Assembly (NCBI GenBank): GCA_963828165.1 | Contig: CAWHDR010000001.1 | Coordinates: 2,839,511 to 2,903,510, forward strand | DNA length: 64,000 nt | DNA from: an uncultured Chloroflexia bacterium | GTDB lineage: Bacteria > Chloroflexota > Limnocylindria > Limnocylindrales > CSP1-4 | Reading direction: 5' to 3' | Shown: piece by piece, positions 52,421 to 62,354 of the stretch | Layout: each line of letters opens with the position of its first letter | Numbering within the stretch: position 1 is the first letter of the stretch | Notes under the pieces: model-generated | What the model saw: the letters and a program-made list of their open reading frames with translations, nothing else | The model's database searches: none | Told to the model about the DNA's origin: nothing | Made by a program: the position numbers and the translations under genes

Positions 52421-53395
52421 TCAGGCGTTGCTGCCGGTGACGATGACGAGGGCCGGCCCGACCGGCCGTTGGCCTGCCAGCAGCCCGGCCCACGAGGCCG
52501 CAGCGGCTCCCTCCACGGTGATCCCGAGCTCGTCGGTCAACTCGGCCTGGGCGCTCCGGAGGGCGTCCTCGGAGACCGTGACCATGTCGTCGACCCGGCC
52601 GCGCATGAGCTCGACCGCACGCGGGATCGCGACGCGCGATGCGATGCCGTCGGCGTACGTGGCCGCGCTGTCCGTGTCGATCGCTCGACCCGCCCGCCAC
52701 GAGAGCGTCATCGCTGCCGCGGCCTCGGCCTGGACGCCCAGCACCCGGCAACCGGGCGCGGCATGGCGCAACCACGAGCCCACGCCGTTGATCAGGGCGC
52801 CATTGCCGACCGGCACGGCAGCGACCGCCGGCATGGGCAGGAGGCCGGCGTCTACGGCGTCGGTGACCTCGAGCGCGAGTGTCCCGGCGCCCGTCGCGAT
52901 GCGGGCATCGTCCCCATCGACGAGGAGCGAGGCATCGTGCTCGGCCGCATAGGTCTCTGAGACGACGCGGGCGTCGTCGAAATCTTCGCCAGCCTCGATC
53001 ACCGTGGCGCCGAGCGCCCGCATCCGGGCGACCTTCGCGCGATTCGCCCGGGTGGAGCAGAAGACCACCGCGGGCACGCCCAGGGCGCGTGCGGCGTAGG
53101 CGACGCCCTGGCCGAAGTTGCCCGCGGACACGCACACGATGGCACGGTCCTGGCCGATGCTCCCCTCCCCCGCCAGCGCCGCCATGGCGACCCACGTGCC
53201 GCGGCCCTTGAACGAGCGGATCGGGTTGACGGTCTCGACCTTGACCACGACCGGGACGCCCAGGCGCGCGGACAGGCCCTCATGGAGGTACTGGGGCGTG
53301 CCGGTGAAGACGGGATCGATCCGATCGTGGGCGGCGCGGATGGCCGCCGGCTCCAGGTCCGGGTGTGCGATCACGGCGCGAGCTGCCCGGGACAT
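52421..53395 (-). CDS. PLP-dependent threonine/serine dehydratase family protein
   Basis: SFKGRG PLP lysine, SAGNFG, PVGNGAL and TGSN. Confidence 0.88.
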   Translation of the reverse strand: MSRAARAVIAHPDLEPAAIRAAHDRIDPVFTGTPQYLHEGLSARLGVPVVVKVETVNPIRSFKGRGTWVAMAALAGEGSIGQDRAIVCVSAGNFGQGVAYAARALGVPAVVFCSTRANRAKVARMRALGATVIEAGEDFDDARVVSETYAAEHDASLLVDGDDARIATGAGTLALEVTDAVDAGLLPMPAVAAVPVGNGALINGVGSWLRHAAPGCRVLGVQAEAAAAMTLSWRAGRAIDTDSAATYADGIASRVAIPRAVELMRGRVDDMVTVSEDALRSAQAELTDELGITVEGAAAASWAGLLAGQRPVGPALVIVTGSNA

Positions 53396-53397
53396 GA

Positions 53398-53589
53398 AAA
53401 CGCCCGAAGGAACGGCCGGTCCGTAGTTGTCAATACCGATGTAAACACCGGTACCGCCACTTGCGGTCTGGCGCCCCTTCGAGCAAGACGAACTGTATCC
53501 GGCGAGGCCGGGGCCTGGGAAGGGGGTTTATCCACGAGTTTGCGAATTGGGTGCGGTGCGGGCTCGCACCGTCCACAGCCCATCCACAG
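53398..53589 (-). repeat. Copy 1 of a ~190-bp structured non-coding unit (stem-loop module + 3 DnaA-box-like sites)
   Basis: Blocks AAACGCCCGAAGGAAC, ATGTAAACAC, GCCCCTTC, GCAAGAC, CCTGGGA, TTATCCACGAGTTT and TCCACAG x2 recur in the same order about 260 bp downstream. Confidence 0.85.
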
Positions 53590-53847
53590 AACCGCACCTC
53601 GTCGCCGCCCGCACTCGTGCCACGCGTCTGCCGCACCGCCGTCCTCCGGCGGACAAAAAGAAACGCCCGAAGGAACTCGATCACTAGATGCCCCGATCCA
53701 TGTAAACACAGATCAGATCACTAGATGTTCGTGCCCCTTCAGGCAAGACCTACCTTACCCGCGCGAGACCCCTGGGACAATCGTGTTATCCACGAGTTTC
53801 CTTGCCGGAGCCTTGCATTTCGAGGGCCTGTCCACAGGCTGTCCACA
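53528..53847 (+). promoter_or_regulatory. Cluster of six co-oriented DnaA-box-like 9-mers
   Basis: TTATCCACG (53528, 53786), CCGTCCACA (53569), CCATCCACA (53580) and CTGTCCACA (53828, 53839), versus consensus TT(A/G)TCCACA. Confidence 0.65.
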
Positions 53848-53848
53848 G
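53661..53848 (-). repeat. Copy 2 of the structured non-coding unit
   Basis: Same conserved blocks with different intervening sequence. A U-tract (TTTCTTTTT) follows the closing stem on the minus strand. Confidence 0.85.
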
Positions 53849-53865
53849 CCGGGGGACGCGAGACC

Positions 53866-55320
53866 TCAGCGGCGGCGCAACAGGAACAGGACCCGGACGC
53901 TGTCCTCGATCGGCGCCTCCCGCACGACCTCGAAGCGTTCCGACGCGGCGGCCCGGAAGCCGTCGAGGGTGTAGTCGGGGAACACGTCACGACGCGTGGC
54001 CAGCAGCCGCCGGACCATGCGGTCCTCCTTGGGGACGAACTCGACGATCGCCCACGGAGCGAGATCCGCGAAGAACCCGAGCACCATCGGCAGCGGCACG
54101 TTGCGCGAGATCGCCAGGTGGTGGACGAGGGCCAGAGCCAGCGCGATGTCCGGATCCGCGCGGTCGAGGAGCGAGCGGCGCTCACGACCCGCCCAGCCGA
54201 TACCCGGGCTCGGGTTCGCGACATCGAGGATGAGCGGCAGGATGTCGGTCCTGCCCTCGGCGCGTAGCTGGCGGTAGTTCCGCTCCGCCGCCGCCGGGTC
54301 GATGTCGAATGCCAGGACGCGCTTGCCGGCGTCGGCCGCGATCCGGCTGTACCGGCCGGTGTTGGCGCCAAGATCCCAGAGCCGCGTGCCCGTGGCCTCG
54401 CCGACGAACGCCTCCACGAGTCGCGCCTTGTCCGCGGTCGCGGCATCGCCGTAGCTCGTGTGGTCGGCGTAGTCGGACCACTCGGTGCCGGCCGGCTCCC
54501 AGCGCAGCCGCTCGACGGTGCCACGCAGGTTCCGGATGAGGCCCTCGAGCCGCTGCCGGCTGATCCGCGCCCCCCGCGCCGCGTCGACGTCGCCCTCATC
54601 TTCGCTGCCGGCATATCGCCGCTGGGCTCGGGCATGGAGGTGAACATGCGACAGCAAGCCGAAATTTAGGCGCGTCCGCCACGGAAGAAGGTTGCTGGCG
54701 AGATCCAGCGGCACGCCGTCGGGGTCGGCGCGGAGCAAGCTCGCGAGTCGGACGTCGCGTCGGGCGATCAATGCCAGCGGCGCCAGGAAGTGCTCACAGA
54801 ACTGGCGGTACGCCACCCACGGCGCGCCCTCTTCGAGCGGCTCGAACGAGAGTGAATCGATCAGGATGGGCCGGGCATCACGGAACTGGACGTTGTACGC
54901 CGAGGCATCCTTGAGCTGCCAGCCTTCGGCCATGGCGTCGAGCTGCGCGTCGAGCGTCAGGAGCGCGGCATCGCGCAGCTCACCGAAGGTCCACTCGAAC
55001 GGATAGCTGATGAACTCGATCTTCTCGGGGCGGATGACCGCGTGGGCGTCGGAGCCCTGCGCGCGTTCGATCGAGATGGGCTCGTACGGGATGAGCCGGT
55101 CACCCTCGATGAGCCGCTGCTTGAGCGGGCTCGCCTCGAACGCGTCCCACTCCGCCGCGAAACTGCGCTGGATCTGGCGGTAGGGCTGGCCGTCCTGCCA
55201 GAAGATGAAACCGCTCGGATCGCGGAACGAGCCGCCGTCCCGCTCGACGGCGCCGGCCGGGGTGGCCGTGTCGGTGCCTGGCACCGCGTTGGCCGGGTCA
55301 GCGACCCCGGGTGCCGTCAT
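53866..55320 (-). CDS. NoeA-like protein: kinase-like N-domain + class I SAM methyltransferase
   Basis: SFRDPSG, LKDASAYNVQF...ILIDSLSF, then LWDLGANTG and LALVHHL. Confidence 0.82.
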   Translation of the reverse strand: MTAPGVADPANAVPGTDTATPAGAVERDGGSFRDPSGFIFWQDGQPYRQIQRSFAAEWDAFEASPLKQRLIEGDRLIPYEPISIERAQGSDAHAVIRPEKIEFISYPFEWTFGELRDAALLTLDAQLDAMAEGWQLKDASAYNVQFRDARPILIDSLSFEPLEEGAPWVAYRQFCEHFLAPLALIARRDVRLASLLRADPDGVPLDLASNLLPWRTRLNFGLLSHVHLHARAQRRYAGSEDEGDVDAARGARISRQRLEGLIRNLRGTVERLRWEPAGTEWSDYADHTSYGDAATADKARLVEAFVGEATGTRLWDLGANTGRYSRIAADAGKRVLAFDIDPAAAERNYRQLRAEGRTDILPLILDVANPSPGIGWAGRERRSLLDRADPDIALALALVHHLAISRNVPLPMVLGFFADLAPWAIVEFVPKEDRMVRRLLATRRDVFPDYTLDGFRAAASERFEVVREAPIEDSVRVLFLLRRR

Positions 55321-61022: not shown

Positions 61023-62354
61023 CTAGCCTGCTGCGGCGGCGGCCCCGTCCCGTTGGTCGCATCGGTCGCGGCCTGGGCCCACCGTTCCGACGCCGCCTCG
61101 AGCTCGCTGGCGAGCGCCGGCGCCACCCGCCCCACGATGCGGACGTCACGCTCGCCGTACTCGAGCTCGACGGTCCCGCGCTCGCGACCCGCGCGAGCAG
61201 CTCACCCGCGGCGTAGGGCAGCGATGCATCGATGTCGACCCACAGTGTCCGAGCAGCGCCGCGATCTCCGCTCGGAGCGTGTCCATCCCGAAGCCGGTCA
61301 GCGCGGAGACCAGCACGGAACCCGCGACGGCCGGGGCCACCGCGCTGCCGTCAAGGGCGGCTCGTTCCACGAGATCGGCCTTGTTGAACGCCACGAGCCG
61401 CGGCTTCTCCCCGCCCCGAGCTCGTCGAGGACGGTCTGGACCGTCGCCCGGTGCTCCGCGACGTGCGGATCGGACGCGTCGACGACCTCGACCAGCACGT
61501 CCGCGCGGTTGACCTCCTCGAGGGTGGCCCGGAACGCGTCGACCAGCTGGTGCGGCAGCTTGTGGATGAACCCGACGGTGTCGGTGACGATCGCGGTCTG
61601 GCCGTCGCCGAGCTTCACCTGGCGGCTCGTCGGGTCGAGCGTGGCGAAGAGCTTGTCCTCGGCCCGCGCCACCTCGGAACCGACGAGCGCGTTCAGCAGC
61701 GTCGACTTGCCGGCGTTCGTGTAGCCGACGATGCCGACGGTCGGCCACAGGCGCCGGTCCGGCCGCGCGCGGCGGTCGAGCGCTGCTGGCGGACCTGCTC
61801 GACGCGCTCCTTCATCTTCGTGATCCGGTCCGGATGAGCCGGCGGTCGGTCTCGAGCTGGCTCTCGCCGGGACCTCGCGAGCCGATGCCGCCCTGGGTGC
61901 GCGAGAGGTGGGTCCACAGCTTGGTCAGCCGCGGGAGCTGGTATTCGAGCTGCGCGAGCTCGACCTGGAGGCGGCCCTCGTGGGTCTGCGCGTGCAGGGC
62001 GAAGATGTCGAGGATCAGCCGGCTGCGGTCGATGACCTTCACCTTCAGCAGGCCCTCGAGGGCTTTCTGCTGGGCCGGCGACAGCTCGTCGTCGGCGATC
62101 GAGCAGATCGAAGCCGGTCTCGCTCTTGGCCGGCGCGAGCTCCTCCGCCTTGCCCTTGCCGATGTACCAGTTGGGGTCGACGTGGCGGCGGTTCTGCCAC
62201 TCCGCGCCCACGACCTCGGCGCCGGCGGTGGTCGCCAGGTTCGCGAGCTCCGACAGGATTCCTGGGCGGTCCAGCCGTCCTCGTCGCCGGTGTCGACGGC
62301 GACGAGGAAGGCCTTCTCGACCGGCACTTCGAGATCGATGAGGCGGGAGGTCAT
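61023..62354 (-). CDS. hflX: GTPase HflX; multiple frameshifts, 3' end approximate
   Basis: [65 protein letters not shown] and NKAD. Confidence 0.92.

Follow-up and report, generated by a model that had tools for sequence, protein, structure and literature searches.

A family of hairpin small RNAs with DnaA-box-like promoter repeats in one class of Chloroflexota

The window analysed here, a stretch of 64,000 nucleotides, is the final 64 kb of the 2.9-Mb contig C1 of an uncultured Chloroflexia bacterium, the genome of which (G000) has a size of 3.3 Mb and a G+C content of 70%. Two units on the minus strand of this window, located in 53395-53865, align with each other at 74% identity, and each of them ends in a long hairpin. 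The two hairpins are referred to as small RNA A, the upstream copy, and small RNA B. Their parts are as follows, with the window positions given first:

53655..53746, minus strand: small RNA A, placed by sequence, fold and a covariance-model match of 93 bits at G000:C1:2893167-2893260
53733-53744 pairing with 53665-53676, minus strand: closing stem P1 of RNA A
53655-53664, minus strand: U-rich tail of RNA A
53397..53486, minus strand: small RNA B, placed by sequence, fold and a covariance-model match of 101.7 bits at G000:C1:2892904-2893000
53484 and 53402, minus strand: ends of the closing stem P1 of RNA B, the tail of which is GUUUU

On the minus strand, the closing stems are formed by GCCUGAAGGGGC or GCUCGAAGGGGC with GUUCCUUCGGGC, and a T-tract follows both. 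Within the imperfect middle helix, RNA A has CAUCUAGUGAUC in each of the two arms, and RNA B has AGACCGCAAG and CUACGGACCGG. Both RNAs have an apical 10-bp stem with a UUUA loop. The closing stems, the T-tracts, the apical stems and the presence of CAUCUAGUGAUC on both arms had all been described in an initial annotation made from the sequence alone, and all were found on the minus strand. As calculated with RNAfold, RNA A (53660-53750) has a folding energy of -44.5 kcal/mol (z -5.86) and RNA B (53395-53490) one of -46.5 kcal/mol (z -4.62), with 0 of 200 shuffles being as stable in either case. The plus-strand readings fold more weakly, at -26.4 kcal/mol for A and -37.8 kcal/mol for B. The initial annotation had placed a large internal loop between the stems, differing between the copies; the interiors do differ, but in the RNAfold structures they are mostly paired, as an imperfect helix with mismatches and bulges, rather than an open loop. 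The 5′ ends given for RNA A and RNA B are predicted ones, and the 3′ end of RNA B was called terminator-like by a terminator scan. The repeat unit exceeds the hairpin, since ~170 nt on the 5′ side of each hairpin are also common to both units.

When the whole window was compared with Rfam 15 at gathering thresholds, 0 matches were obtained, and the E-value mode over 53200-54000 returned only mir-2944 (20.5 bits against a threshold of 56, E 0.25) and sR14 (9.9 bits). The element therefore remains without a known family at either setting, as the initial annotation had it. A second version of the locus is present in the same assembly: contig C6 (24105 bases), a variant with 95-97% identity by which the end of C1 is connected with the start of C5, carries the same RNA pair. 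RNA B of C6 (L002 1871-1967) differs by ~6 uncompensated changes on the 5′ side of the apical stem and scores 78.8 bits versus 101.7 bits, and RNA A of C6 retains P1 through a register shift.

The fold is strongly supported by covariation. RNAalifold, run on a structure-blind MAFFT alignment of 46 copies, gave 29 pairs, 14 of them with double (compensatory) changes. A covariance model built from copies of the family, R1, gave sense-strand scores of 70.9-106.7 bits, with the antisense strand reaching 36.2 bits at most; together with the weaker plus-strand folds, this agrees with the earlier claim that the pairing is strand-specific. Among 84 model-aligned copies, 98.3% of the cells are paired, against 86.3% in column shuffles (with 0 of 500 shuffles reaching the observed value) and 37-46% in a control with slid partners, and 18 of the 29 pairs have changed on both sides; this alignment was fitted to the model and leans to the structure, while the 46-copy MAFFT alignment is free of that bias. 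The closing stem includes two tandem G-U pairs, one present in 75 and the other in 80 of 81 distinct rows. The apical stem varies with compensation, and its loop swaps among UUUA, CUUG and GCAA. In type A, CUAGUGAUC on both arms is kept across species, and so are GACCG(C/A)AAG and CUACGGACCGG in type B. Within a given paralogue type, conservation of the interior extends across genera and even orders, so that the interior is not reprogrammed from copy to copy.

The locus was found by blastn in 34 of 36 genomes of the genus. R1 matches 98 of 108 genomes of the bacterial family f1, with 1-5 matches each, and 26 of the 27 genera scored in the order sample, the exception being the one genus of a sister family. 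These matches, together with the excess of pairing over shuffled columns, bear out the ~90-nt non-coding RNA family that had been proposed. In the small-genome (1.1-Mb) sister family f2, 0 of 42 genomes match R1. The blastn matches seen in f2 (12 of 24) were rejected, being pieces of 22-38 nt with E values of 7e-5 or weaker that lie mostly on the spacer between A and B and never on the RNAs. A 151-genome sample of the phylum yielded matches in 9 of 10 genomes of one family in a second order of the same class, with no match in any other family scored. From named genome records, 80 loci were retrieved by a pattern scan, 53 of which match R1 at a cut-off of E<=1e-8. Every one of the 53 bears a label of the Chloroflexota lineage (Chloroflexota, Chloroflexia, Anaerolineaceae or Candidatus Limnocylindria/Limnocylindrales), the last of these in 15 cases, and none of the records labelled with other phyla matches R1. 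In our reading, this places the organism of the window in the Limnocylindria. The family is restricted, among the sampled genomes, to one class of Chloroflexota. No literature joining Limnocylindria or Limnocylindrales with small or non-coding RNA was found, and the hairpins constitute a real, strongly supported small-RNA family that has so far been undescribed.

Two weaker R1 matches in G000, at C1:2017246-2017336 and C1:873806-873892, represent two further types, C and D, so that four paralogue types (A, B, C and D) are present in this genome. Counterparts of C and D were read in five other genera. Both share the closing stem, GCCCGRAGGGGCC with GGUYSCUUCGGGC, as well as the upstream boxes, and have TTGACC as the -35 and TAnnGT as the -10. 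What sets them apart from A and B is a conserved 13-nt apical loop that contains GAUNRCAUCAA. No seed or binding motif is common to all the paralogues; only the P1 stem is shared, with the interiors differing between A, B and C/D. Rfam gave no match at E<=0.1 for the type C and D loci. In the sister order, type A is present without boxes and a 78-nt type D with them, and both types are therefore old. Some genera have versions of ~130 nt with a second internal hairpin (L071 and L076 in G073; L075, L079 and L070 in G119), and one closed genome (G119:C1:2283517-2287706) has three copies in 4.2 kb, two of them identical.

The region upstream of each hairpin, which the initial annotation missed, is the most informative part of the locus. 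It contains the following elements:

53752..53757, minus strand: TAAGGT, the -10-like hexamer of RNA A, with its end 8 nt before the CCUG of P1
53775-53780, minus strand: -35-like TTGTCC of RNA A, 17 nt from the -10 and after the proximal box
53786..53799, minus strand: proximal box AAACTCGTGGATAA of RNA A, with the complement TTATCCACG
53828..53848, minus strand: two distal direct repeats CTGTGGACAG of RNA A, 11 nt apart, with GTGGAC at 53841-53846 and 53830-53835
53492..53497, minus strand: -10-like hexamer TACAGT of RNA B
53528..53541, minus strand: proximal box AAACTCGTGGATAA of RNA B
53571..53587, minus strand: distal direct repeats GTGGAT-N5-GTGGAC of RNA B

The sequence AAACTCGTGGATAA is present twice in the window versus an expectation of 0.09, and the paired GTGGAC/GTGGAT boxes are likewise common to the two units. 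In C6, the proximal box of RNA B reads GTGCATAA. The same architecture is seen in a set of 101 distinct promoter-plus-RNA sequences, where GTGGAY boxes in the sense orientation are concentrated in two places, a pair with 11-nt spacing at -110 to -90 and a single box at -60 to -50, with almost none elsewhere; at least two boxes are found in 87 of these promoters, one in 4 and none in 10. The proximal box likewise keeps its place at -60 to -50 in 87 of the 101. A TAnnnT hexamer lies on the 5′ side of P1 in 94 of the 101, and its end is 7-9 nt before the CCCG of P1 in all 94 and exactly 8 nt before it in 77. With a -10 at a fixed distance from P1, the transcript would start at or just before the stem. 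Of just 5 instances of GTGGAY-N5-GTGGAY in the 3.3-Mb genome, 4 lie at small-RNA promoters, the C6 allele being counted. The conservation around the proximal box extends beyond the 9-mer, to the flanks in ACTCGTGGATAAS. The -35 quality has a mean of 3.7 of 6 in promoters both with and without boxes, with no clear difference, and we therefore make no claim as to an activator or a repressor.

What protein, then, would read these boxes? As a yardstick we used TTATCCACA or TTGTCCACA, which we take to be the DnaA-box consensus, and the boxes agree with it in 8-9 of 9 positions. The complement of the proximal box of RNA A, TTATCCACG, agrees in 8 of 9 positions and the distal boxes read (C/T)TGTCCACA, which gives RNA A at least three sites in ~150 bp with no more than one mismatch, namely TTATCCACG and two copies of CTGTCCACA. 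The type C promoter also has three DnaA-box-like sites. Counted on either strand, the 8-mer GTGGA[CT]AA occurs 69 times in the 3.3 Mb. In the intergenic region between dnaA and dnaN, GTGGACAA or GTGGATAA was found in 6 of 6 genomes from five genera, at ~100 times the genome-wide frequency; the region consists of GTGGAC/GTGGAT boxes, then GTCCAC/ATCCAC, then an AT-rich stretch, GATGATGGTGATGA...GAGAAGATAG, just before dnaN. In all six genomes this region (G000:C1:1236968-1237303; L258-L262) has the appearance of an origin. When the genome was scanned with a weight matrix derived from the boxes of the small RNAs, the four small-RNA promoters ranked top, and the promoters of rsmG (gidB) and parA were also found. 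The rsmG promoter has the same box-to-TTGAC arrangement, and 25 of 30 genomes across the family retain it. In other bacteria, rsmG and parA classically neighbour or depend on DnaA boxes. The DnaA protein itself has a complete C-terminal helix-turn-helix domain (PF08299, 91 bits). Judging from these sequence likenesses, we consider it quite likely that the GTGGAY boxes are DnaA boxes; the same DnaA-box-like architecture recurs at the rsmG promoter, with an echo in the origin region.

Several other sites of this kind were noted in the genome. In 25 of 30 genomes, the rsmG promoter (G000:C1:1134130-1134385; L213 about 630-885; L217-L246) combines two DnaA-like boxes in inverted orientation with a TTGAC -35, and the leader before the rsmG start codon is conserved, being ~170 nt in G000 and starting ...CCGGCATCCGCAC...; it has no Rfam match and may be structured. 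Between the divergent parA (soj) and a carboxyltransferase gene lies the inverted pair TTATCCACA/GGTGGATAA (G000:C1:2551250-2551300; L215). The second-best box cluster, at G000:C1:2144190-2144300 (L214 about 1190-1300), has four DnaA-like boxes in one orientation within ~600 bp of non-coding DNA, with AT-richer DNA before it, three copies of a GC-rich repeat after it and an HTH_3 (XRE-type) gene adjacent, and could be a second origin-like site or a mobile-element site. Three direct GTCCAC repeats with 12-nt spacing are located in non-coding DNA at G000:C1:77715-77745 (L216).

The tandem RNA locus also has a characteristic chromosomal position. The distances from dnaA are listed below for genomes that carry dnaA and the RNA locus on one contig, the genomes being 85-95% complete and the sizes rounded:

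G000: 1.655 Mb of 3.31 Mb, 0.50 of the genome (C1:2892904 versus dnaA at C1:1237837)
G119: 1.536 Mb of about 3.1 Mb, 0.50
G157 (weak partial match): 1.824 Mb of about 3.7 Mb, 0.49
G147: 1.615 Mb of about 3.2 Mb, 0.50
G135: 1.585 Mb of about 3.3 Mb, 0.48
G074: 1.844 Mb of about 3.8 Mb, 0.49
G079: 1.372 Mb of about 2.8 Mb, 0.49
G153: 1.968 Mb of about 3.6 Mb, 0.55

In seven of these genomes the locus is at 0.48-0.50 of the genome from dnaA and in the eighth at 0.55, that is, near the expected terminus. Since the eight genomes are kin, this represents one conserved arrangement and not eight independent observations. The linkage of the tandem locus to hflX was checked in G000, G074, G135 and G147. 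In G121 and G132, which belong to one genus, the best match is a box-less type A copy at 0.24-0.26 Mb from dnaA; dnaA and the RNA lie on different contigs in 20 of the 26 genomes compared, and in G138. The GC, AT and amino-keto skews in G000 are weak and show a broad plateau at 2.9-3.04 Mb, which is compatible with a locus near the terminus.

The genes around the RNAs are the following:

52421..53395, minus strand: gene for a pyridoxal-phosphate-dependent enzyme, PALP (Pfam PF00291, E 1.7e-60, match from residue 29)
53866..55320, minus strand: 484-aa methyltransferase-like gene, upstream of the RNAs and ending 18 nt before the distal boxes of RNA A
61046..61895 (G000:C1:2900556-2901405), minus strand: hflX, found by tblastn, 7 kb upstream of the RNAs

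The first ATG of the PALP gene abuts the U-tract of RNA B. Pfam matches of seven neighbouring proteins include PALP, a methyltransferase-like protein, a CPBP protease, DUF1810 and SDR. On C1, hflX is split into five or six pieces in different frames, and C6 has one continuous match of 285 aa, which suggests that the assembly of C1 contains indel errors or that the allele has decayed. In relatives (53 loci), the neighbours are HflX, a ~190-aa protein, an acyltransferase and an MBL hydrolase, and the usual order is hflX, the ~190-aa protein, one or two RNAs, then PALP or the acyltransferase. Two RNAs are held by 27 of the 53 loci, with gaps of 128-1058 nt. The next gene is co-directional in 43 of 53 loci (PALP in 22, acyltransferase in 11, others in 10) and on the opposite strand in 7. 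The protein of 189-190 aa (L010 836-1405 and relatives) ends in WPLE, has no Pfam match and is placed near Glycolipid_bind (PF06475)-like proteins; it was considered as a partner of the RNAs and rejected, given this resemblance and a search of G000 that did not find it.

Evidence on expression comes from six soil metatranscriptome runs that share a short part of the stretch, the contigs of four of which were compared with the locus. Contigs overlap the locus in all four RNA libraries. Those of three libraries, with ~92% identity, span 53305-53731, 53347-53703 and 53402-53704, which corresponds to B, the spacer and part of A, and the word depths of the contigs are 18-75. They lend at most weak support to expression of the locus, as strand and ends are not readable from such contigs and carry-over of DNA is possible. 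The positions 53741-53900 are uncovered by contigs in all four libraries, and the missing cover was not counted as evidence.

Taken together, these results lead us to propose that RNA A and RNA B are products of two adjacent, separately promoted paralogous small-RNA genes with putative DnaA-box promoters, an explanation that has in our judgement a somewhat better than even chance of being right; each small RNA would be an independent gene, probably under the control of DnaA. A number of observations weigh against this proposal. The contigs from the RNA libraries cross the spacer between A and B and run 50-90 nt past the terminator of RNA B, which fits read-through or co-transcription, or DNA in the library, and hints at read-through from A into B and beyond. 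A scan of 53200-54000 for promoters of the E. coli consensus found 0 promoter-like sites, so that it is conservation on which the promoter assignment is built. Nine of the 10 box-less promoters among the 101 belong to type A copies in other genomic contexts, and the tenth is a reverse-strand match to one of these nine. With the matrix derived from the small-RNA boxes, the dnaA-dnaN region falls outside the top 15 clusters, which makes a dedicated regulator with a DnaA-like site possible. Among the proteins known to serve small RNAs, Hfq (PF17209), ProQ (PF04352), CsrA (PF02599) and Ro/TROVE (PF05731) were each found in 0 of 5 genomes of 88-97% completeness, which leaves none of these known partner classes available; all five have RNase III. 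For the conserved motifs, taken as 9-15-mers with one mismatch allowed, the genome yielded no extended complementary target.

A search of the genome for copies and complements of the motifs, the search that the initial annotation had recommended for its loop sequences, returned only the RNAs themselves and scattered matches in coding sequence, and hence no target. A 10-mer match inside the 16S ribosomal RNA was treated as chance. Pairing of the type A 12-mer with the C/D loop extends over only 6-7 bp, and this candidate was rejected, as was pairing of the C/D loop with the AT-rich stretch before dnaN, both being too short and inconsistent between genomes. In A and B, an imperfect helix with a tetraloop-like cap encloses the conserved sequences. 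In the predicted structure of RNA A, the two copies of CUAGUGAUC may be read as a nearly two-fold symmetric duplex with two bulged bases. Burial in a helix would suit recognition by a protein better than seed pairing.

How do these RNAs compare with systems already known? Qrr1-5 under LuxO and RsmX/Y/Z under GacA are small-RNA regulons in which multiple paralogues share a regulator site. The family described here resembles them in having several small-RNA paralogues with the same upstream motif at a fixed distance from the promoter. However, its paralogues share the closing stem and not a seed or GGA loops, Hfq and CsrA were not found in any of the five genomes, and the upstream site resembles a DnaA box and not the site of a response regulator. 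More generally, the features of a Csr/Rsm sponge, of a Y RNA/YrlA and of an Hfq- or ProQ-dependent small RNA do not apply, their partner proteins being found in 0 of 5 genomes. As in a Rho-independent terminator, a GC-rich stem is followed by a T-tract; here, however, a conserved insert of 60-100 nt is enclosed by the stem, which would begin approximately at the start of transcription, and the whole transcript would thus be the terminator hairpin. DnaA-box clusters are also known from B. subtilis. In E. coli, datA and DARS1/2 are clusters of DnaA boxes outside oriC (PMC4585315). The present locus likewise has at least three DnaA-box-like sites in non-coding DNA, away from the origin and at a conserved chromosomal position, but each cluster sits at fixed promoter positions before a gene for a structured, covarying RNA.

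Two further likenesses had been suggested by the initial annotation, namely the 6S bubble and the loops of bridge RNAs. Like 6S RNA (RF00013), the hairpins are single and extended with paired 5′ and 3′ ends; but at 85-90 nt, against 187 model positions, they have half the length of 6S and lack a large central bubble, so that the comparison does not hold. RF00013 gave no match at the locus or in the G000 genome, with a model that found 6S in only 5 of 14 control genomes. Signal recognition particle RNA is located at G000:C1:2331945-2332044. IS110 bridge RNAs are also structured non-coding RNAs with internal regions that differ between copies; unlike them, the RNAs described here have no adjacent recombinase family, and their interiors are conserved across species and not matched to target or donor DNA.

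Of the other explanations, one concerns only the protein that reads the boxes. It may be a dedicated transcription factor, for example an OmpR-type response regulator on the 11-bp-spaced repeats, in a cascade from a regulator to multiple small RNAs like GacA-RsmXYZ or LuxO-Qrr. The 11-nt spacing of the direct repeats would suit such a factor, as would the near-exclusive occurrence of GTGGAY-N5-GTGGAY at small-RNA promoters (4 of 5), the matrix ranking, with these promoters top and dnaA-dnaN outside the top 15, and the flanks conserved beyond the 9-mer in ACTCGTGGATAAS. Yet the core 8-mers are identical to those between dnaA and dnaN in 6 of 6 genomes and recur at the rsmG (25 of 30) and parA promoters, and no candidate regulator gene is linked to the RNAs in the loci examined; we consider a dedicated regulator unlikely, though deserving of serious attention. 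Another explanation takes the hairpins as cis-acting 5′ leaders, terminators or attenuators that tune read-through into the PALP or acyltransferase gene. That a co-directional gene comes next in 43 of 53 loci, that the first ATG of PALP abuts the U-tract of RNA B, that the U-tracts are short and that the contigs of the RNA libraries extend 50-90 nt past the terminator of RNA B are all in its favour. It is made improbable by the 7 loci of 53 with the next gene on the opposite strand, by RNA A being followed by a full promoter and RNA B instead of a gene, and by the paralogues in unrelated contexts, where the downstream gene changes and the RNA stays. In addition, the 'CATG/CGTG' after the U-tract is also found behind copies without a following gene, and no alternative antiterminator fold is evident, the hairpin being one long stable helix.

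It might also be imagined that the function resides in the DNA, with a DnaA-box cluster opposite the origin titrating or recycling DnaA in the manner of datA/DARS and the hairpin being a by-product or a structure of single-stranded DNA. Three to five DnaA-like boxes per unit in two tandem units, at 0.48-0.50 of the genome from dnaA in seven genomes and 0.55 in the eighth, are what such a cluster would look like. However, the G-U pairs, including the two invariant tandem ones (75 and 80 of 81 rows), make the structure strand-specific, the apical loops are tetraloops of the RNA type, a -10 at a fixed distance precedes the stem and U-tracts follow it, and the covariation is far above the controls. 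Moreover, box-less copies of RNA A persist, and the RNA is therefore selected in its own right. A function in the DNA in place of the RNA is thus highly improbable, and titration may be an additional role beside that of the RNA. Finally, a programmable guide or decoy RNA, bridge RNA- or 6S-like with two-sided loops exchanged between copies, as the initial annotation envisaged, would account for a constant closing stem with interiors that differ among the four paralogue types. This idea can hardly be upheld in view of interiors that are mostly paired and conserved within each type across genera and orders, the lack of a recombinase or transposase family among the Pfam matches of the neighbours, loop sequences without a match elsewhere in the genome, a length of ~90 nt without a central bubble, and the Rfam 6S model having no match in the genome.

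Under the proposal of separately promoted small-RNA genes read by DnaA, each RNA is one imperfect hairpin of ~35 bp, the closing stem of which, GCCCGRAGGGGC with GUUCCUUCGGGC and its two invariant tandem G-U pairs, would double with the U-tract as an intrinsic terminator. The middle helix carries the paralogue-specific sequences, conserved within each paralogue, and the apical stem is free to vary and covaries. In each gene, a TAnnGT -10 precedes the stem by ~8 nt, and GTGGAY boxes, three in number, are located at ~-50, -90 and -100. Occupancy of these boxes by DnaA would set the transcription of A, B, C, D and rsmG, and would link the replication status to the functions that the RNAs control. 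The RNAs probably act in trans, with A and B being more likely to do so through a protein that reads the helix than through seed pairing of the Hfq type, and the 13-nt apical loop of C and D (GAUNRCAUCAA) could pair with a target or bind a protein.

A precedent for a tie of this sort is CcnA, a cell-cycle non-coding RNA of Caulobacter that concerns the response regulator CtrA and GcrA (PMC8959179). The two cases have in common a proposed tie of non-coding RNA synthesis to a master regulator of the cell cycle or replication; they differ in that DnaA boxes and a paralogue family are found only in the present case, the sequences and structures are unrelated, and so are the phyla. We would speculate, as a doubtful extension of our proposal, that the DnaA-read paralogous hairpin RNAs, with the main pair opposite the origin, report DnaA-ATP occupancy or replication status, or feed back on initiation, via a protein that recognises the tandem-G-U stem and the paralogue-specific helices.

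If our proposal is correct, an undescribed and well-supported family of non-coding RNAs would be added to a large and mostly uncultured branch of Chloroflexota. With Hfq, ProQ, CsrA and Ro undetected in the five genomes searched, the family could point the way to a new RNA-binding partner. Unusually, a whole set of small-RNA paralogues would also be furnished with DnaA-box arrays, which would make a link between the initiation of replication and regulation by RNA testable in these bacteria.

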